This document shows positions 747 to 61,386 of a DNA stretch of 64,000 nucleotides, one piece after another. The stretch comes from an uncultured Candidatus Saccharibacteria bacterium (GTDB taxonomy: Bacteria; Patescibacteriota; Minisyncoccia; Phycocordibacterales; CSBR16-119): positions 58,482 to 122,481 of the forward strand of contig CAZLAD010000001.1 of assembly GCA_964557535.1 (NCBI GenBank), given 5' to 3'. The translations under genes were made by a program, and so were the position numbers. The notes beneath the pieces were generated by a model, which saw nothing but the letters and a program-made list of their open reading frames with translations, was not told the origin of the DNA and ran no database searches. Position 1 is the stretch's first letter. Every line of letters begins with the position of its first letter.

Positions 747-2483
747 TTAAAAAAGATTTTCTGGGTTTACGCGGATTTGCCAGTCGGGGGTGAGGGAGGT
801 GAGAATTTCGGAGAGTTTGGGGTCTTGGAATTCTTCGTTCCAAATTTTCTTCGAAAGTTTTAAGATTATCAGACTTTCAAAAGTTCTCCCGCGTTTTATT
901 CGACGAGCTAGAGGATTCCAAATTGAAAGATGAGACACAAGAGGTGAGACATTAGAATCAAAATCATCCTTGTTTGACGTTCGTGAAATTCTCATCAGTG
1001 TCCCAAATGGTGGATAGCCGAATTTTTCACGCATGGATTTTTCAAATTCGTAAAATTCTTGCAAGTTTCCGTTCGCCAAAGTTTTTATGGCCAAATTTTC
1101 TATGTCGCGAGTTTGCAAAATTGCTTTCGGTGATAAATTTTTTACAGCGAATCCTAGCGAGAGAATTTTTTCGTAAATTTTATAACTTGGAATTGATAAA
1201 AGCGCGTCGAGAGAGATGATGGCGGTAACGTCGAGTGGTTTGTAGAGGTGGGGGATAGCGAGCTCCGTGCCAACCAAAATCGAATTTGGCGTTTCATAAA
1301 ACTTTTGGACGGTTTCGCGAACTTTTTTGTTAGTCTTCGTCACGTCACCATCGATTTGAAAGATTTTTTTCTTTGGAAAAAGTTTCTTCGCTTCGAGGGC
1401 GATAGTATCGGTGCCGATGCCGAGCGTGTCAAAATTCCAACTACCACAATTCCCACACCTGGTCTTTGGATCAAGTGTTGCACCAGTTTGCGGATTTAGA
1501 AGCACTCTTTCTCCCGCACGCTCTCGCAAAACGAGACCGATATCACCATCTTTTACAATTTGCCCACAATCATGACATACGACCGAGCTTCCGAGGCCCT
1601 TGCGCAAAGCAAAGGCAAAAGCTTTGTCGCTCGTCTTAAATTCCTCAAAAACTTTTTTGGAAAAAATAAAACTTTTTTTCTCTCGATTCTCCTTGTCACT
1701 CATATCAATCACACGAATGGAGGTCGGACCTTGGGTTTTGGTGATTTTCAAATTGTTTTCGACAATTGTTTCGAGTGAAAGTGGTGCGCCAATGAATTCT
1801 ATTTTGATTTTTAAATTTTCGGCCAAGGTACGGAAAAAATATCGCAGATCAAAATATGGTCGTTTGAGGCTTCGATACGCCGAAGAATGTTCATCGTGAA
1901 TTATGATTTTGCCCAAATCGTGTCGTGGCGTAAATGCAAATGATGGAGTCATGATGACGACTACGGGTCCAGGATTTTCCAAAATTTCTTGGTAACGAGC
2001 GAGCAATGTCTTTTTTCTCAAACTTCCGTGGATGACGAAAACATCTCTGTCTAAAGTTTCGGCTAGGCGTTCGACGGCACGGACGGTCGGCGCGATATGA
2101 AAAACTGATGAGCCGACCGTCCGTGATACTGGCTTCGGCAGATCTTCATAATGTTCCAAAAATTCTATTGGCAGAAAGTAGTTGACAATTTGTCCTAAAT
2201 TGCCGACAAAAAATCTTTTCGTTTTATCGCAGGCGATAAAAAATTCTTTGTAAAATTTGGTCTTACCTTTGACGCTTTCAATCTTTTTGAAACCAAATAT
2301 TGCTGTTTTGATTTCTTGTTTCAAGTCTTTGGCGTCGCGAACTCCGACGACCAGAGCGTCGTATTTTTTCTTTCTGACTTCGATCTCGACGACATCACCT
2401 ATAGAAATGTCTTTGGCCGAGAAATAGGTTAGAGAGTCTTTTTGGACTTTGGCGGATATTGGGCTGACTTCGACGAGTTTCAT
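747..2483 (-). CDS. priA: Primosomal protein N' (PriA)-like helicase with degenerate ATPase motifs
   Basis: Helicase motif II IIIHDEHSSAY matches DEEH. C-terminal Cys-rich Zn-binding region CHDCGQ...CGNCGS is present. The Walker A position reads VGSSVFHIAP instead of GxGKT, and motif III SAT reads GAP. The N-terminal 3'BD/WH region is short. Confidence 0.7.
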   Translation of the reverse strand: MKLVEVSPISAKVQKDSLTYFSAKDISIGDVVEIEVRKKKYDALVVGVRDAKDLKQEIKTAIFGFKKIESVKGKTKFYKEFFIACDKTKRFFVGNLGQIVNYFLPIEFLEHYEDLPKPVSRTVGSSVFHIAPTVRAVERLAETLDRDVFVIHGSLRKKTLLARYQEILENPGPVVVIMTPSFAFTPRHDLGKIIIHDEHSSAYRSLKRPYFDLRYFFRTLAENLKIKIEFIGAPLSLETIVENNLKITKTQGPTSIRVIDMSDKENREKKSFIFSKKVFEEFKTSDKAFAFALRKGLGSSVVCHDCGQIVKDGDIGLVLRERAGERVLLNPQTGATLDPKTRCGNCGSWNFDTLGIGTDTIALEAKKLFPKKKIFQIDGDVTKTNKKVRETVQKFYETPNSILVGTELAIPHLYKPLDVTAIISLDALLSIPSYKIYEKILSLGFAVKNLSPKAILQTRDIENLAIKTLANGNLQEFYEFEKSMREKFGYPPFGTLMRISRTSNKDDFDSNVSPLVSHLSIWNPLARRIKRGRTFESLIILKLSKKIWNEEFQDPKLSEILTSLTPDWQIRVNPENLF

Positions 2484-2600
2484 CCCGTTAGAGATAGCAA
2501 ACCTTAGTTTGCGTACCTTTGTTATTGTTTTGTAAATAATTTACGACCACGGCGATATTTCCATCAAGATTAATTGTAACCAAGTTATCTCTAACGGGAT
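2482..2600 (-). repeat. Intergenic IR-bounded element E1 (119 nt), reverse orientation, abutting the priA start codon
   Basis: Terminal inverted repeats ATCCCGTTAGAGAT (2482-2495) and ATCTCTAACGGGAT (2587-2600). Read on the minus strand it ends TACGCAAA-hairpin-TTTGCTATCTCTAACGGG followed directly by the priA ATG. Confidence 0.75.
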
Positions 2601-2661
2601 TCATGCCTTCATCATAGCATTTTGGAAATTCGACACGAAAAGGTAAGATAGACACGTAATT

Positions 2662-3981
2662 ATGAGTGACATATTCAAGATCAAGGGCGGGAAAAAACTA
2701 AAAGGCACCATTAGACCACAAGGCTCGAAAAACGAGGCTTTTCAGGTTATCGCCGCGACGCTTCTGACTGACGAAGACGTGGTTATTGAAAATATTCCAG
2801 AAGTTTTGGATATCTTGAATTTGTTCGAAATCCTAAAAATTTTGGGCGTCGAAATTACGAAGCTCGGTCACGGTTCTTACAAACTAAACGCAAGCGCCGT
2901 CGATGTCGAGAAAATGAAATCGGAAGAATTTTCAAAACTTTTCTCCAAACTTCGCGGATCACTTTTGGTTGCGGGTGCGATGCTTGGGCGATTTGGAAAA
3001 AGTGTCATTCAACAGCCAGGCGGAGACAAAATCGGAATTCGTCCAATCACAACTCACGTCAAAGCCTTTGCCGATATTGGTGCGGATGTAGAAACAAAAG
3101 GAGATTTTCAGGAACTTGTTTTGAAAAATATTGTTTCGAAAAGGATCACTTTGAGCGAAACTTCGGTTACTGGAACAGCCAACGCAATCCTCTCGGCTGT
3201 TTTGGAAAAAGAATCTCCGCATGTTTTGGAAATTTATAACGCCGGTTGCGAAACTTATATCCAGCAGCTTTGCAAAATGTTAAACAATATGGGCGCCAAG
3301 ATTTCTGGTGCAGGCACGAATCTTGTCGTTATCGAATCAGTCAAAAAACTACACGCTACAAATCACACTCTTTTGCCGGACATGCTCGAAATCGTCAGCT
3401 TGATCGTGCTTGGAGTTGTGTGTGGCGAAGGAATTTTTATAGAAGGTGCCAAGAGAGAACACATCGGCGAAATTACAAATATTGTTTTGAAGAAACTCGG
3501 TGTGCGTTTCGAAGAGCGAGAAGATGGATTTTTCGTTCCCGAACACAAAGAATATGAAATCCAAAAACCGAGAACTCCAGGAAAAAATATTCGTATCATT
3601 TATGATGACAAATGGCCGGGACTTTCGCCGGACCACATCAGTAGTCTGATTGTGCTTTGTGTTTATGCCAAGGGCATGGTGACTATTCGTCAACGCATGT
3701 TTGATCGACGACTTCTGTTCTGTGACGTTTTGAACACCATGGGCGCAGAAATTGTCATGTCGCATCATCAGGAAGTTACGGTTGTTGGGAATAATCGAAG
3801 TCGAACTTTGGTTGGTCTCGAGATGGCATCACCTGATATTCGCGCCGGCATGGCACTACTTATCGCCGCGCTTTCAGCCAAAGGCGAAAGTATTATCCAA
3901 AATGCGCATCAGATAAATCGTGGTTACGAACAAATCGTTGAGCGACTTCAAACTCTCGGCGCCGATATAGAATATGCCTAA
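2662..3981 (+). CDS. murA: UDP-N-acetylglucosamine 1-carboxyvinyltransferase (MurA), active-site Cys replaced by Asp
   Basis: Full-length MurA similarity (KGGKKLKGTIRPQGSKNEA...). The active-site loop reads QPGGDKIGIRP where E. coli has LPGGCAIGARP. Confidence 0.95.
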   Translation: MSDIFKIKGGKKLKGTIRPQGSKNEAFQVIAATLLTDEDVVIENIPEVLDILNLFEILKILGVEITKLGHGSYKLNASAVDVEKMKSEEFSKLFSKLRGSLLVAGAMLGRFGKSVIQQPGGDKIGIRPITTHVKAFADIGADVETKGDFQELVLKNIVSKRITLSETSVTGTANAILSAVLEKESPHVLEIYNAGCETYIQQLCKMLNNMGAKISGAGTNLVVIESVKKLHATNHTLLPDMLEIVSLIVLGVVCGEGIFIEGAKREHIGEITNIVLKKLGVRFEEREDGFFVPEHKEYEIQKPRTPGKNIRIIYDDKWPGLSPDHISSLIVLCVYAKGMVTIRQRMFDRRLLFCDVLNTMGAEIVMSHHQEVTVVGNNRSRTLVGLEMASPDIRAGMALLIAALSAKGESIIQNAHQINRGYEQIVERLQTLGADIEYA

Positions 3982-16173: not shown

Positions 16174-16262
16174 ACAAAAAGCCGTTTATAAATTTTTTCC
16201 CCTGCGAAAGCGTGTCTACGCACTAAAGTCCTCGGGTTCAAAAATTTATAAACGGCTTTTTG
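16174..16262. repeat. Long inverted repeat (23-bp AT-rich arms around a 42-nt GC-richer loop) between 15128..16165 and the next gene
   Basis: CAAAAAGCCGTTTATAAATTTTT ... AAAAATTTATAAACGGCTTTTTG. The loop contains GCGTGTCTACGCAC. It is immediately followed by a TGcTACAAT -10. Confidence 0.7.
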
Positions 16263-44344: not shown

Positions 44345-44459
44345 TCCCGTAAGAGATGTTTTGTTAAAAACAATCACTTCGCGGGTAGGGGTTCGAAGAG
44401 TTATTTAATTACAAAAATTAACAGGGTACGCAAATTAATAATTTGCTATCTCTAACGGG
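44345..44459 (+). repeat. IR-bounded element E2 (115 nt) ending at the ATG of a 49-aa membrane ORF
   Basis: TCCCGTAAGAGAT ... TACGCAAATTAATAATTTGCTATCTCTAACGGG followed by ATG. It begins 14 nt after the trpS stop. Confidence 0.75.
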
Positions 44460-44609
44460 ATGAAAAATTTTGTTTTGGGTTTGGTTTTTGTTTTGATTTT
44501 GATTGCGGTTATCGTTTTATTCAAGAGAATGGGCGAAGAGAAAGAACCAGAACTTAGGAGCTTGGACGAATTTTCAAATATTCAGGAGGGCGACATATTG
44601 CCACAATAG
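44460..44609 (+). CDS. Small hydrophobic protein (49 aa), putative
   Basis: MKNFVLGLVFVLILIAVIVLFKRMGEEKEPELRSLDEFSNIQEGDILPQ. The start codon is the ATG that terminates element E2. A terminator follows. It is below the ORF-track length cutoff. Confidence 0.4.
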   Translation: MKNFVLGLVFVLILIAVIVLFKRMGEEKEPELRSLDEFSNIQEGDILPQ

Positions 44610-44680: not shown

Positions 44681-45373
44681 CTATGAACCTGCCGGCCGAA
44701 TACCGTTGTTCACGAAGCCGCTTCCGTTGCCCATCTGTACTTCGACTCGTGTTCCTTTCGGAACAGAGAAGAGATACTGGTCATTTCCAGCGATTGTCCC
44801 CGTGGGGACGGCCGTCGGGGCAGGTGCTGAAGCCTGTTGTGTCGGCGGGGGCTGATGGCTTGTCGCTGGCGATGTGCTGGTCTGCCAGAAACGATTCCAT
44901 GCGTCACGTAACACTCCGAGCAATGCCAATGCCAGGGCCAACAGAAAAAGGCCGACCAAGATGGCGAGAACAGGCGGCACCCAATCGAAGTGTTTACCCC
45001 AGTTGATACCGGAGTATTTCGTTCGAGCGTTACAGCCGTCGGCTGCCATCTTGGCATCCAACGGCTTGCCTTGGACCACGAAGGTCGTATCCACGTGTTG
45101 CGACACGCAGATATCCTTTTCGTAGGCCGTGCCGGAGCACCACCTGCGGGTTTCCTTGCTGGGCACCGCTTTCTCGTAGGAGAGATGCACGGTGTCTCCG
45201 CGCAGGTGCAGGCCCTCGAAGTTCTCCTTGGTGAAGGGCGAGGGATTGTTGCAGGCGCTCGCGAAGAGCAGGATGATGCCCAAAAGGGCGATCACTGGGA
45301 GCTTCCAGGTCGGTTTCAGGTTGTTCATGATCATTGGGAATGTGCCGGTCAGGGCGGTTTGGTTTATAAGCAT
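44681..45373 (-). CDS. Putative lipoprotein or membrane protein with a Pro/Thr/Gln-rich linker, in a 57% GC island
   Basis: Signal plus lipobox-like ...LLFASAC. A second TM (VLAILVGLFLLALALALLGVL) and a low-complexity PATSHQPPPTQQASAPAPTAVPT segment. Foreign codon usage. The start is probably at an internal Met (45334 or 45328). Antisense ORFs are artefacts. Confidence 0.5.
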   Translation of the reverse strand: MLINQTALTGTFPMIMNNLKPTWKLPVIALLGIILLFASACNNPSPFTKENFEGLHLRGDTVHLSYEKAVPSKETRRWCSGTAYEKDICVSQHVDTTFVVQGKPLDAKMAADGCNARTKYSGINWGKHFDWVPPVLAILVGLFLLALALALLGVLRDAWNRFWQTSTSPATSHQPPPTQQASAPAPTAVPTGTIAGNDQYLFSVPKGTRVEVQMGNGSGFVNNGIRPAGS

Positions 45374-51773: not shown

Positions 51774-51875
51774 AATCCCGATAGTGATTATAAGTCGGGT
51801 TAAATAATTTACTTAGATAAAGTTTGTAATTTGTTGTAAAATGAAAAAATCTCTTAATCAATAATCACTATCGGG
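51774..51875 (+). repeat. IR-bounded element E4 (102 nt) filling the scpA-scpB spacer
   Basis: AATCCCGATAGTGATTA ... AATCACTATCGGG followed by the scpB ATG. It begins 2 nt after the scpA stop. Confidence 0.75.
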
Positions 51876-52430
51876 ATGAATTTGGAATCAAAAATCGAAT
51901 CTTTTTTGTTTTGGAAAGGTGAACCGCAGACAGAGTGGGAGATAGCTGTTGCTATGCGAGTTGATCCGGCTGAAATTCCGGGAGCCCTGGCAAAGCTCGA
52001 AGAATCGCTAAAAGGCCATGGTGTTACACTTGTCCGTCATGGAAACAAGGTGATGCTTGGCACGAATCCCGAAATGTCACATTTTTTTGAAGAACTTCAG
52101 AAAGAAGAACTGAGCAAAGAACTTTCCAAAGCTGCGCTCGAGACACTTTCGATAATTCTCTACAAGGATTCGGTGACGCGAAGCGAGATAAATTTTATTC
52201 GCGGAGTGAACTCAGGATACATCTTGAGAAATCTGGAAATTCGCGGATTGGTGGAGAAAGCAAACCAAAAAAACGATGCCCGCACGTATGTTTACAAGCC
52301 GACTCTCGAATTGTTATCATATCTCGGGGTTTCCAAGGTCTCCGATTTGCCACAGTTCGAAACGATCAGAAATACACTCGAGACCAAGCTCTCCGGTCAG
52401 CCAGATCAGGAAGGAAATGAATCCCGTTAG
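51876..52430 (+). CDS. scpB: Segregation and condensation protein B
   Basis: Tandem winged helices (ALETLSIILYKDSVTRSEINFIRGVNSGYILRNLEIRGLVEK). Confidence 0.85.
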   Translation: MNLESKIESFLFWKGEPQTEWEIAVAMRVDPAEIPGALAKLEESLKGHGVTLVRHGNKVMLGTNPEMSHFFEELQKEELSKELSKAALETLSIILYKDSVTRSEINFIRGVNSGYILRNLEIRGLVEKANQKNDARTYVYKPTLELLSYLGVSKVSDLPQFETIRNTLETKLSGQPDQEGNESR

Positions 52431-56521: not shown

Positions 56522-56638
56522 ATCCCGTTAGAGATGTCGTAGTCAAAATTATTCAGGAAGGTTATAAAATAATGGTCGTCAATTACTTACAAAATATTAA
56601 GTCAGATACGCAAACCAAAGTTTGCTATCTCTAACAGG
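56522..56638 (+). repeat. IR-bounded element E6 (117 nt) filling the ftsW-murG spacer
   Basis: ATCCCGTTAGAGAT ... GGTCGTCAATTACTTACAAAAT...GATACGCAAACCAAAGTTTGCTATCTCTAACAGG followed by the murG ATG. Confidence 0.75.
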
Positions 56639-57769
56639 ATGAAAATTGTTATTACAGGCGGTGGTTCGGGAGGGCATTTTTATCCTGCTATCGCAATAGC
56701 AGAGAAGTTGAACGAACTTGCATTGGCTGAAAAAATTTTAGATCTTGAGCTTTTTTATATTGCCGACACCCCATACGACAAACGCGCGCTCGACGACAAT
56801 CGAATGACTTTTTTGGAACTAAATACTGGAAAACAAAGAACATATTTTTCTGTTCAAAATTTTTTTGATATCTTCAAAACTTTTTTCGCGACAATTCGAG
56901 CAATTTTTATCCTTTATAAAATTTTTCCAGATGTTGTTTTCTCCAAAGGTGGCTATCCGTCGGTTCCGGTGACTATTGCTTCGAGAGTGCTTGGGATACC
57001 TGTCGTTATCCACGAATCAGATTCTGTACCTGGACGCGCCAACAAAATGGCTGGTAAGTGGGCAAAACGTATTGCGATTTCTTACAAAGAAGCTTCGGAT
57101 TATTTCCCCAAAGAAAAAACCGCTTTCGTTGGACACATTGTCAGAAAAGAAATTCGAACACCGCTTAGAGAGGGGGCTTTTGAATATCTAAAATTAAAGT
57201 CTTCTTTGCCTGTTATTTTTATTTTGGGTGGTTCGCAAGGTGCCAAGATAATAAACGAGACGATTTTAAATGCTTTGCCAGAGCTTGTCACGAGATATCA
57301 AATTATCCATCAGACAGGAGTAAAAAATTTTGAAGAAGTGAAAATTATTGCCGATCTAAATCTAAAAGAATCAGAAGCCAAACAAAATTATTATCCATAT
57401 CCATATCTAAACAAACTAGCCATACGTATGGCGGCGGGGGTCGCGGAGCTTGTCGTCTCTCGTGCGGGAGCAAATTCTATTGCCGAAATAGCATCATGGG
57501 GACTACCGTCTATCATCATCCCGATAACAAAAACAAATGGTGATCACCAGCGCAACAATGCGTTTAACTATGCTGAAACAGGAGCATGTGTAGTAATCGA
57601 AGAATCCAATTTGGCTCCGAATGTTTTGATCGAAGAAATAGATAGGCTTTTTGCTGATACAGCGACCTTTAAAAACATGAAGGAAGCAACATCAAAATTT
57701 GTTTTTCCAGACGCCGAAGAAAAAATTGCCCGAGAGATAATTAATATCGGACTTTCCCATGAGCAATAA
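56639..57769 (+). CDS. murG: UDP-GlcNAc:MurNAc-pentapeptide GlcNAc transferase
   Basis: N-terminal GGGSGGHFYPA loop. GT-B fold. C-terminal UDP-binding region. Confidence 0.9.
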   Translation: MKIVITGGGSGGHFYPAIAIAEKLNELALAEKILDLELFYIADTPYDKRALDDNRMTFLELNTGKQRTYFSVQNFFDIFKTFFATIRAIFILYKIFPDVVFSKGGYPSVPVTIASRVLGIPVVIHESDSVPGRANKMAGKWAKRIAISYKEASDYFPKEKTAFVGHIVRKEIRTPLREGAFEYLKLKSSLPVIFILGGSQGAKIINETILNALPELVTRYQIIHQTGVKNFEEVKIIADLNLKESEAKQNYYPYPYLNKLAIRMAAGVAELVVSRAGANSIAEIASWGLPSIIIPITKTNGDHQRNNAFNYAETGACVVIEESNLAPNVLIEEIDRLFADTATFKNMKEATSKFVFPDAEEKIAREIINIGLSHEQ

Positions 57770-60937: not shown

Positions 60938-61056
60938 TCCCGGTAGTGATACCTCGGTTTTGGATGGGATAATTAGTAATCTAACCACGGTCGTGAATTC
61001 TTTACAAAAAACTAACTTCGATACGCAAATTTAATAAATTTGCTATCACTATCGGG
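60938..61056 (+). repeat. IR-bounded element E7 (119 nt) ending at the ATG of the 61057 gene
   Basis: TCCCGGTAGTGATA ... CCACGGTCGTGAATTCTTTACAAAAAACTAACTTCGATACGCAAATTTAATAAATTTGCTATCACTATCGGG followed by ATG. It contains the same CACGGTCGTG motif as the grpE promoter region. Confidence 0.75.
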
Positions 61057-61386
61057 ATGATAAAAATCCTCGTCGGTGTGATTCTCTTGCTTGTTGTGCT
61101 CGGACTTTTGGGTGTATCTGTCCAGCACGATGTTATCGAACATGAAGGTGTTCAAGAAAACGTCTCGTATGTCTCGACAGGGGTCGTGGGATTTTGGAAT
61201 ACATATTTATCTCAACCCGCGCAATGGTTATGGCAAGAACTCATTGTAAATATTCTCTGGGAAACTTTTGCTCGAAATATGGAACGTCTACGTGACGGCG
61301 AGACTCCGACTGACTTCACCAATTCGCACCTCGACGACTGGCCAAGTATCCCGGAACTTATCGACAATTACAACGCGAATAATTAA
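61057..61386 (+). CDS. Hypothetical membrane-anchored protein (109 aa)
   Basis: N-terminal TM (IKILVGVILLLVVLGLLGV). No motifs. Confidence 0.45.
   Translation: MIKILVGVILLLVVLGLLGVSVQHDVIEHEGVQENVSYVSTGVVGFWNTYLSQPAQWLWQELIVNILWETFARNMERLRDGETPTDFTNSHLDDWPSIPELIDNYNANN

Follow-up and report, generated by a model that had tools for sequence, protein, structure and literature searches.

We asked what kind of element occupies the spacer between a priA-like gene and the divergent murA gene, and how PriA could be made when this element interrupts the very start of its gene. The window, by which we mean the whole 64-kb stretch of DNA that was analysed, contains the element, E1, in the following setting:

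747-2483, minus strand: divergent priA-like gene of 578 aa, with E1 inserted into its start
2479-2483, minus strand: downstream direct repeat ATGAA, with which the priA ORF begins (ATG at 2481-2483)
2483-2599, minus strand: E1 core, 117 nt, minus-strand 5'-TCCCGTTAGAGAT...ATCTCTAACGGGA-3', a non-coding, MITE-like member of its family
2483-2495, minus strand: 3' (gene-proximal) arm ATCTCTAACGGGA, the 3' strand of stem P1
2497-2512, minus strand: hairpin P2, GCAAAC-TAAG-GTTTGC, stacked directly on the 3' strand of P1
2587-2599, minus strand: 5' (gene-distal) arm TCCCGTTAGAGAT, the 5' strand of P1
2600-2604, minus strand: upstream direct repeat ATGAA, presumed to be the original priA start codon plus 2 nt
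2662-3981, plus strand: murA (PF00275)

The priA-like protein is a divergent PriA (E = 5e-22 to PDB PriA and 1e-44 to TIGR00595, although the latter match falls below that family's cut-off). The arms of E1 form a perfect inverted repeat of 13-15 nt, ATCCCGTTAGAGATA at 2482-2496 being the exact reverse complement of TATCTCTAACGGGAT at 2586-2600, and a computed RNA fold joins them in a 15-bp closing stem together with the P2 hairpin (z = -4.3). E1 has properties by which MITEs are recognized: it is small and lacks an ORF of its own, it ends in inverted repeats, it has dispersed copies and it is flanked by a target-site duplication, here the ATGAA found on both sides. This anatomy bears out the initial annotation, which had described paired arms with a hairpin adjoining the priA-side arm. 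It had also stated that the hairpin-side terminus provides the priA ATG and that the bare terminus faces murA at about 60 nt; the last arm base (2483) is indeed the A of that ATG, and the distance from the distal arm to the murA ATG is 62 nt.

Is E1 an isolated structure? The window contains 12 occurrences of the arm motif where 0.82 are expected, and none of 100 shuffles reached 12. Seven paired elements are present, and E1 is the only one on the minus strand, as had been noted before. The other six are:

44345-44460, plus strand: family copy before a 49-aa ORF; flanks ATGGG and ATGAA
49073-49152, plus strand: short family copy of 80 nt with the ATAGTG arm variant, before an Asn/Asp-tRNA synthetase-like gene; flanks ATACAA and ATGCAA, with TAGAAT 7 nt upstream
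51776-51876, plus strand: family copy with the ATAGTG arm variant at the scpA-scpB junction; flanks ATGAA and ATGAA
52422-52540, plus strand: family copy separating scpB from a D-Ala-D-Ala carboxypeptidase gene; the scpB stop codon and the upstream ATGAA overlap (ATGA)
56523-56639, plus strand: family copy at the ftsW-murG junction; E1 has its closest relative here (interior identity 0.69)
60938-61057, plus strand: family copy with GTAGTG and CACTAT arms before a 109-aa ORF; TGcTATTAT lies 8 nt upstream of the GTG

The repeated unit is the whole inverted-repeat-bounded element, in agreement with the earlier claim. The statement that E1 lies in reverse orientation is true in window coordinates but not relative to the gene, since the hairpin of E1 stands beside the ATG as it does in the other window copies.

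We then considered where the promoters of the two divergent genes lie. Two candidate boxes flank the element:

2611-2619, minus strand: extended -10 box TGcTATGAT outside E1, separated by 6 nt from the upstream ATG; predicted leaderless-type priA promoter
2644-2649, plus strand: murA -10-like box TAAGAT, 12 nt from the murA ATG and independent of E1

According to the initial annotation, E1 may act as a bidirectional module, that is, as a self-contained promoter cassette driving priA from its hairpin end and murA from its bare end. The location of E1 in a divergent spacer is consistent with this proposal, as is the AT-rich interior, which in 69 copies showed a weak and broad excess of -10-like hexamers 11-14 nt before P2 (35 versus ∼20), and Correia-type MITEs are known to carry promoters (PMC10969869). 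However, no sharply positioned -10 peak was found inside the family copies, whether before P2 or before the downstream ATG, a sigma-70 scan returned 0 sites, and the 3' arm, with TATCTC or TGTCTC, makes a poor -10. The sole -10 box at working distance from priA is the one outside E1. Its geometry (box, 6 nt, ATG) is that of 21 of the 50 element-free genes in the window, a box outside the element at leaderless distance was present in 56/120 family copies (47%), and the priA ortholog of L018 has TAAGAT, 6 nt and ATGAA upstream of its element. Transcription of priA is thus predicted to start at 2604, 5 nt outside E1, and murA has a box of its own. Paired inverted repeats do occur in related genomes, where the orthologous priA starts of L018 and L064 carry such an element. 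In L018 it lies behind a terminator with no divergent gene and no murA nearby, and in L064 another element, with the hairpin on the far side, belongs to murA. Thus, the element goes with the gene start into which it inserted and not with the divergent spacer. The orientation of E1 relative to its gene, the same as that of the other window copies, also speaks against a module serving both sides. We regard a promoter cassette as very unlikely, and E1 as a bidirectional promoter is a false lead that can be set aside.

Collection scans extended the family to more than 240 copies, nearly all of them in Parcubacteria MAGs. A genome scan gave at least 120 matches, and every lineage-named record among the matches listed was from Parcubacteria; a metagenome scan with a pattern lacking the ATG gave at least 120 more. 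Within 1.69 Mb of loci we counted 260 paired elements. Viral contigs contained no copy, no PHROGs family matched, and our literature searches turned up no account of the element, of its arm sequence or of MITEs that target start codons. The association with start codons was strong: in an unbiased set of copies the terminal A formed an ATG in 116 of 122 elements, and 91/114 of the element-formed ATGs opened an ORF of at least 60 aa. An exact 5-mer repeat flanked 74/121 copies, compared to 36 on random re-pairing, and the two nucleotides following ATG were identical between the flanks in 74 of 83 cases. In the unbiased set about two thirds of the copies had an exact 5-nt flank repeat (77/114; 81/124), a clean repeat being missing in about one third. 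The flanks of L249 suggest that the true duplication is 4 nt, TGAA. Across the family the 13 paired arm positions are nearly invariant and the interior is hypervariable. The downstream genes were unrelated, with 148 Pfam families represented among 101 proteins; the elements therefore do not mark a regulon, and an operator pair was ruled out on the same grounds.

The family also carries signs of movement. The scpA-scpB junction, filled in the window at the scpB start, is empty in L011 and L004, and the ftsW-murG junction is filled in L011 as well. L229 contains a nested copy inside an internal ATGAA, with an ATGAA repeat of its own, and in tandem copies a single ATGAA is common to both. Together, the empty orthologous sites, the tandem copies and the nested copy indicate mobility. 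Arm subfamilies show coordinated changes in both arms. Orthologous conservation of the elements was considered and rejected: we found 36 orthologous gene pairs with elements compared to ∼26 under independent insertion (a rough estimate), and several of these pairs combine different subfamilies.

Inverted repeats around a segment of ∼100 bp could also be recombinase sites of an invertible DNA switch that flips the downstream gene on or off, and 11/114 oriented copies are reversed, with the hairpin on the far side from the gene and normal ATGNN flanks (for example at murA in L064). Yet there is no internal promoter to flip, the targets are essential housekeeping genes, no recombinase was found among the genes called beside the copies examined, and no locus was found in both orientations. 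We consider such a switch very improbable and the least credible of the readings discussed here.

Next we asked whether the conserved structure reflects a function for the host. P2 is enriched at the ATG-proximal arm (62/121 copies compared to 8.6 expected), P1 and P2 together have 95.6% paired cells versus 84% after shuffling, and double (compensatory) changes occur in 6/7 P2 pairs. P1 (13-15 bp) and P2 (6-7 bp) adjoin each other on the 3' strand and are predicted to form a stacked helix of ∼20 bp; in a hairpin-less subfamily a long-range helix extends P1 instead. Such strong P2 covariation beside a conserved P1 would be expected if the element were a cis-regulatory RNA of the host, a structured 5' leader that acts like a riboswitch or binds a protein and that selection maintains before many housekeeping genes. 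In agreement with this, the element is predicted to be transcribed at mRNA 5' ends, and its sense strand folds 1 kcal/mol better than the antisense strand (p = 0.011). On the other hand, Rfam gave no match at gathering thresholds over the whole window and nothing at E-value thresholds in two regions, the best E-value match being SAM-III at 20 bits against a cut-off of 45, which is noise. The G-U and A-C counts in the stems (83 versus 67) showed no significant strand bias, thus giving no strand signal for RNA-level selection, and assignment of the strand by this comparison was dropped. The hypervariable interior, the 148 unrelated downstream gene families and the copies inverted relative to their genes do not fit a regulatory leader either; flank duplications, nested or tandem copies and empty sites record insertion events, and the arms are coding sequence in the full-length form described below. 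A cis-regulatory RNA is therefore improbable.

If E1 is a mobile element, what is it related to? Searching for arm pairs ∼260 nt apart, the only way in which this form was detected, revealed versions of 275-280 nt with E1-type arms that carry a gene for an 86-aa GIY-YIG nuclease (L180, L235, L166, L242, L248, L249, L250 and L255). The full-length ORF matches Pfam GIY-YIG (PF01541) with E = 1e-16. Its best matches among solved structures are 1zg2 (E = 2e-8) and 1ywl (7e-4), with SLX1 matched weakly; the group I intron endonuclease model TIGR01453 also gives a weak hit. The nuclease gene is built into the element: the 3' arm doubles as its last five codons (LSLTG), and the TGA that ends it is made from the host ATGA and so shares bases with the start codon of the host gene. 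The nuclease has matches in more than 4,253 protein clusters. In the sequences inspected the proteins are 85-95 aa long and consist of the catalytic domain only, and LKRF/SLSLTG was found at or near the C-terminus in 24/24. A 4-nt stop/start overlap with the next gene was seen in 4/6 distinct contexts, and in the other two the gap was 0-2 nt. ATGAA precedes the 5' arm in 4/8 full-length copies (L166, L248, L249 and L250) and is absent there from L180, L235, L242 and L255. An autonomous element with distant arms was not found in 1.7 Mb of loci, where the orphan arms were chance matches.

The short forms of 80-130 nt keep the arms together with complementary segments corresponding to the LRKRF and LKRF codons, which now pair as P2; the full-length copies retain P2 through synonymous changes. 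L206 represents an intermediate MITE, in which the N-terminal 28 aa of the nuclease are fused to its C-terminal end. Since nuclease-bearing versions have the same arms, E1 is a MITE-like relative of that cassette, and it is probably a deletion derivative. Nuclease remnants at the protein level were found in only 4/232 MITE interiors and in none in the window, and no coding remnant or similarity to the nuclease gene was detected in the interior of E1, so that the proposed derivation rests on the arms, the position of P2 and the TACG motif.

The cassette is organized as follows. A full-length copy of ∼275-280 bp comprises a 13-bp arm, a stand-alone UPF0213/SLX1-like GIY-YIG gene of 85-86 aa and the inverted arm. 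It sits directly after the host start codon plus 2 nt, with ATGNN duplicated on both sides, and its last base becomes the first base of the rebuilt host start codon. Mobility may be driven by the nuclease and the stem structure. To our knowledge, no GIY-YIG enzyme catalyses transposition with a 4-5-nt duplication, and the nuclease could instead be a passenger, the arms serving an unseen transposase.

How, then, could PriA be synthesized behind E1? In P1 the A and U of the priA AUG are base-paired, which could block initiation. The priA RNA would begin at the leaderless-type promoter of the host and read AUGAA, then E1, then AUGAA and priA. An upstream ORF runs from the upstream ATG through E1:

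2488-2604, minus strand: upstream ORF MNPVRDNLVTINLDGNIAVVVNYLQNNNKGTQTKVCYL*, 38 codons plus TAA

It ends within the 3' arm, 4 nt short of the priA ATG. A ribosome would initiate at the 5'-terminal AUG, translate the 38-codon ORF through E1 and thereby open P1, stop at the UAA and re-initiate at the priA AUG. In the family such through-reading upstream ORFs were found in 39/160 copies compared to ∼10 by shuffling. The upstream ORF stops early in 76% of the MITEs, so the relay cannot be general. A conserved leader peptide and an in-frame N-terminal extension of the host protein were both ruled out, because the upstream ORFs range from 6 to 42 codons and element length shows no mod-3 preference.

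The same mobile element could also allow priA expression by another route, in which RNase III would cut the ∼20-bp P1+P2 helix, in the manner of Correia/NEMIS repeats or rRNA intervening sequences, and leave a very short leader for leaderless-type translation. The contiguity of P1 and P2 on the 3' strand and the extension of P1 in the hairpin-less subfamily would provide a substrate, the enzyme is retained in CPR bacteria (PMC12641178), the TIR stems of Correia/NEMIS elements are cleaved by RNase III (PMC10969869), and GIY-YIG-bearing non-intron insertions are present in CPR rRNA genes (PMC11270868). However, a staggered cut within P1 gives no 5'-terminal AUG, and the enrichment of through-reading upstream ORFs favours translation across the element. 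We therefore judge RNase III processing unlikely, if less so than the other alternatives, and the translation relay appears to be the most likely route to PriA synthesis behind E1. Overall, we think it likely that E1 is a non-autonomous, ORF-less MITE relative of tiny Parcubacteria (Paceibacteria) cassettes, probably derived by deletion, with priA served by the host promoter and the relay.

Finally, we compared the family with known systems. It resembles Correia/NEMIS elements of Neisseria and ERIC elements of enterobacteria in size (∼100-150 bp), terminal inverted repeats, high copy number, location near gene starts or in operons and co-transcription. Correia elements duplicate TA, contain promoters and an IHF site and occasionally are found inverted (PMC10969869). 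In contrast to the 26-bp TIRs of Correia/NEMIS, the arms of the E1 family are 13 bp long and unrelated in sequence, the duplication is (A)TGNN at start codons, no positioned internal promoter is present, the arms are shared with a GIY-YIG nuclease gene, and the family, not being confined to a single genus, extends across a clade at class or phylum level; for Correia elements, no parent element is recorded in the sources consulted. Rickettsia palindromic elements are likewise palindromic MITEs that persist inside expressed sequence, their insertion being compatible with translation (PMC10969869). While these elements insert in frame and join the protein, members of the E1 family lie between the start codon and codon 2, and a separate start is rebuilt.

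The full-length cassettes are reminiscent of GIY-YIG homing genes (I-TevI, T4 seg), in which a selfish nuclease gene also lies between host genes and spares their expression. Homing enzymes possess an extended DNA-binding domain and insert copies of their gene at a single cognate allelic site, whereas the cassette protein is a bare catalytic domain of 86 aa and its sites are many unrelated gene starts. Inverted-repeat arms, flank duplications and ORF-less derivatives further set the family apart from homing genes; E1 itself has no GIY-YIG domain, which is confined to the full-length relatives. UPF0213/COG2827 proteins (BH0048, EF2693) and SLX1 provided the best solved-structure matches and belong to the same size class, but they are treated as ordinary cellular genes, and we know of no report of UPF0213/SLX1 genes with inverted-repeat bounds, overlap with the start of the next gene or MITE offspring. 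A subterminal hairpin, with structure conserved rather than sequence, is shared with IS200/IS605-derived palindromes and REP/RAYT. Those systems lack both terminal inverted repeats and a target duplication and use HUH enzymes, while the E1 family has the repeats as well as the duplication.

These comparisons raise the possibility, which we put forward tentatively and hold to be somewhat short of an even chance, that the cassettes are an undescribed class of minimal mobile elements of ∼275 bp. Their sole gene would encode the 86-aa UPF0213/SLX1-like GIY-YIG nuclease and their mobility would depend on the conserved two-helix fold of their own ends. They would insert before codon 2, directly behind the start codon, use the initiation signal of the host, leaderless or coupled, as their own and hand ribosomes over at a UGA/AUG overlap, and their ORF-less copies would stand before about one gene in ten, including essential genes, in streamlined Parcubacteria genomes.

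If this is true, a selfish gene would have a new means of sparing its host, with neither intron nor intein: at the one position it occupies, the start signal of the host would express the selfish gene, whose stop codon would restart the host gene. It would explain many of the mini-genes annotated as 'GIY-YIG nuclease' or 'excinuclease ABC subunit C' in candidate-phyla-radiation genomes and may account for the non-intron GIY-YIG insertions in CPR rRNA genes. Gene calling is affected as well, with ∼10% of gene starts lying behind a 120-nt repeat and some nuclease calls bearing an MNPVRD extension. In uncultured bacteria, the family would also serve as a natural system for testing leaderless initiation and termination-reinitiation.

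E1 is a 117-nt inverted-repeat element (2483-2599, minus strand) between priA and murA. The initial annotation had described a paired repeat with a hairpin in which the end of one arm provides the priA ATG, and this was confirmed:

747-2483, minus strand: priA-like ORF of 578 aa; the A of its ATG is the last arm base of E1
2482-2496: E1 arm on the priA side; the plus strand reads ATCCCGTTAGAGATA
2497-2512: hairpin P2 of E1, 6 bp (GCAAAC/GTTTGC), immediately inside the left arm
2586-2600: E1 arm on the murA side, TATCTCTAACGGGAT, the exact reverse complement of the priA-side arm
2644-2649: murA's own box, TAAGAT
2662: start of murA

The product of the priA-like ORF is a divergent PriA; it had no Pfam hit, scored under the NCBIfam PriA cut-off and aligned to PriA at residues 129-506 only. 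In the predicted fold of the priA-strand RNA, E1 is closed by a stem of 15 bp (P1), and P2 stacks on the 3' strand of this stem (-36.6 kcal/mol compared to -22.6 in shuffles, z = -4.3), and the opposite strand folds about equally well. The 13-nt arm motif occurred 12 times in the window (0.82 expected), and a looser scan found seven paired elements of 80-120 nt. Of these, E1 is indeed the sole minus-strand copy, the other six being on the plus strand; it is not inverted relative to the others, however, as alignment by the abutted gene gave equal polarity (bare arm distal, hairpin arm adjoining the ATG).

E1 had also been read as a promoter element and a possible bidirectional module. The source genome is largely leaderless, and a -10-like hexamer, often TGnTAnAAT, precedes the start codon by exactly 6-7 nt in 21/50 element-free window genes (leaderless-type starts include 31384, 37104(-), 39006(-), 41607(-), 43357, 47642, 51043, 55411 and 59333). 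Just outside E1, the priA strand reads TGcTATGAT-gaaggc-ATGAA and then the 5' arm; judged by its sequence, the TGcTATGAT box is a predicted leaderless promoter aimed at the ATG 5 nt before the element. The priA ortholog in locus L018 has a like geometry (TAAGAT-gaagac-ATGAA), and leaderless geometry precedes the element in 56/120 family copies compared to ∼20 expected. No positioned -10 peak was seen inside the element in the family copies, and a sigma-70 scan found no site within it. The comparison of priA and murA starts in related genomes bore out the earlier proposal in part: both L018 and L064 carry an element at priA, but the L018 copy lies 3' of a terminator and in L064 priA and murA each have a separate element of their own. 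Because the predicted promoter is outside E1, no -10 is positioned inside it, murA has an independent box and the L064 elements are separate, the reading as a promoter or bidirectional module is unsupported and was rejected.

Elsewhere in the window, two plus-strand genes are separated by a perfect 23-nt inverted repeat (16175-16197 and 16240-16262; CAAAAAGCCGTTTATAAATTTTT with its complement) that looks like a terminator. A GC-rich island (44700-45350, 55-61% GC vs 43% for the genome) had no RNA family match; its minus-strand ORF (44681-45373, 230 aa, membrane-protein-like, with a leaderless-type promoter) may be a horizontally acquired gene.

A genome scan with the ATG in the pattern gave at least 120 matches, and among those listed all records that name a lineage belong to Parcubacteria groups (Wolfe-, Kaiser-, Nomura-, Campbell-, Yanofsky-, Harrison-, Sung-, Zambryski-, Taylor- and Yonath-bacteria). 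Many element-bearing MAGs (e.g. L017-L020, L026-L028) are labelled 'uncultured Candidatus Saccharibacteria', in contrast to the Parcubacteria group names on every other record with a named lineage, and these Saccharibacteria labels may be unreliable. A metagenome scan without the ATG also gave at least 120 matches and was the basis of an unbiased set. Among the matches listed from this set, the terminal A makes an ATG at one end in 116/122 elements (two at both ends), 91 of 114 such ATGs begin an ORF of 60 aa or more, and the length mode is 120-121 nt. Six elements of the set (L130, L131, L149, L161, L169, L241) have flank repeats of the ATAAA type, not ATGNN, indicating that targets other than start codons are also used. 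At L088:330-481, a short element adjoins the 3' end of a tRNA-like sequence (GGTTCGAATCC...CCA) with the flank repeat TCCA instead of ATGNN, and an arm-less GIY-YIG ORF then follows. Viral contigs contained no copy of the element. The genes downstream of elements include lepA, mur ligases, recR, pheT, murA and scpB, and their 101 proteins represent 148 Pfam families; thus, the family is no regulon.

ATGAA stands on both sides of E1 (2600-2604 and 2479-2483). In 74/121 copies the pentamer preceding the element is identical to the ATGNN that follows, compared to 36 by random re-pairing, and the two variable bases are identical in 74/83. Among the listed matches of the unbiased set the flank repeat is perfect in 81/124, and the others mostly differ at several positions, not one. 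Insertion is shown directly by the scpA-scpB junction (filled in the window, empty in L011 and L004), by tandem elements with one common ATGAA (L016, L168, L166), by an element nested in the internal ATGAA of another with its own ATGAA repeat (L229), and by arm subfamilies with coordinated changes in both arms (TTAGAG to ATAGTG, AGAG to AGAAG, terminal T..A to C..G). In L249 the C..G variant makes the rebuilt start codon GTG, which means that the start codon takes its first base from the terminal base of the element. This variant also suggests that the true duplication is probably TGAA.

In L180 and L235, arm pairs ∼260 nt apart surround an 83-86-aa ORF for a GIY-YIG catalytic domain (PF01541, E = 1e-16), and L166, L092 and L088 hold further copies. 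A protein search returned >4,253 clusters at E <= 1e-10, mostly of 85-86 aa, the named ones from Parcubacteria lineages; among solved proteins, UPF0213 stand-alone GIY-YIG proteins are closest, followed by SLX1. All 24 sequences examined carry ...GMGKRYLKNRLKRF/SLSLTG at or near the C-terminus. The 3' arm (CTG TCT CTA ACG GGA) supplies the codons for LSLTG, and the stop TGA belongs to the host ATGA. Of 6 distinct genomic contexts examined, 4 show a 4-nt overlap between the nuclease gene and its downstream neighbour; in the other two the next start lies 0-2 nt past the stop. In L248 the order is TAATAT-agata-ATGAA, 5' arm, CAAAACCTT, ATG TTT TAT ... ACG GGA TGA, AGATTT. Here the frame opened by the host start codon encodes MNPVRDQNL and continues into the nuclease (likewise annotated for nuclease proteins P0102, P0109 and P0027), and the host gene appears to restart at the ATG overlapping the TGA stop (ATGA). 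Other full-length copies have a 7-codon ORF starting at the host ATG, with its stop 1-4 nt before the nuclease ATG. More distant GIY-YIG ORFs (L047, L177, L227, L002, L154, L111, L150, L049; 31-42% identity) had no canonical arms within 80 nt and may be other subfamilies with different ends.

The hairpin strands of the short, ORF-less members (MITEs) match the LRKRF codons (CTA CGG AAG CGC TTT) and the C-terminal LKRF codons (AAA GCG CTT CC); in full-length copies these segments lie ∼150 nt apart, are fully complementary and keep their pairing via synonymous changes. L206 is a 123-nt intermediate that still encodes VFYVYAMQNANKRLYTGFTGDLRKRF fused to SVSYL*. Given this correspondence between P2 and the codons, and the intermediate, E1 and the other short elements are best interpreted as derivatives that arose by internal deletion. 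Protein-level similarity to the nuclease is retained in only 4/232 short elements, and not in E1.

For covariation we aligned 56 copies, all chosen for possessing the hairpin. P1 has 13 nearly invariant pairs, with position 13 alternating between U-A and C-G. In these hairpin-selected copies P2 shows compensatory changes in 6/7 pairs, and 95.6% of cells are paired compared to 84% in shuffled copies and 40-46% with slid partners. As an unbiased statistic, 62/121 copies (8.6 expected) have a hairpin of 6 bp or more no further than 2 nt from the ATG-proximal arm, and only 9 copies have one at the distal arm. G-U vs A-C counts (83 vs 67) did not identify the functional strand, and the sense strand folds better by only 1 kcal/mol. 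We speculate that the two-helix fold, being conserved, and the nuclease having structure-specific relatives, could be the feature recognised by the mobility machinery.

How could priA be expressed behind E1? By position, E1 stands 3' of a leaderless-type promoter, and a 38-codon ORF opened by the upstream ATG runs to a TAA within the 3' arm that precedes the priA ATG by 4 nt. Such uORFs run through the whole element to the TAA or an overlapping TGA in 39/160 cases, four times the ∼10 in shuffled interiors; 76% of family uORFs stop earlier. In the most likely route, transcription would start at 2604 and a ribosome would initiate at the 5'-terminal AUG while the 3' arm is yet to be transcribed. 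Reading through E1, it would prevent or open P1, terminate beside the priA AUG and then re-initiate. Alternatively or additionally, RNase III, which CPR bacteria retain (PMC12641178) and which cuts the TIR stems of Correia elements (PMC10969869), may cleave the ∼20-bp stack of P1 and P2.

Functionally the short copies resemble the Correia/NEMIS and ERIC MITEs, but they have another target, another duplication, no internal promoter and a different parent element. That parent is similar to a free-standing GIY-YIG homing endonuclease gene, from which it differs in having no DNA-binding domain, many unrelated sites, inverted-repeat ends, a flank duplication and placement at the start codon. GIY-YIG ORFs occur in non-intron insertions of CPR rRNA genes, seemingly 'outside the context of homing' (PMC11270868). 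A literature search returned no description of the element, and earlier work may exist beyond the literature covered; as far as we could find, the family is undescribed. E1 is an ordinary, decayed member of this unusual family.
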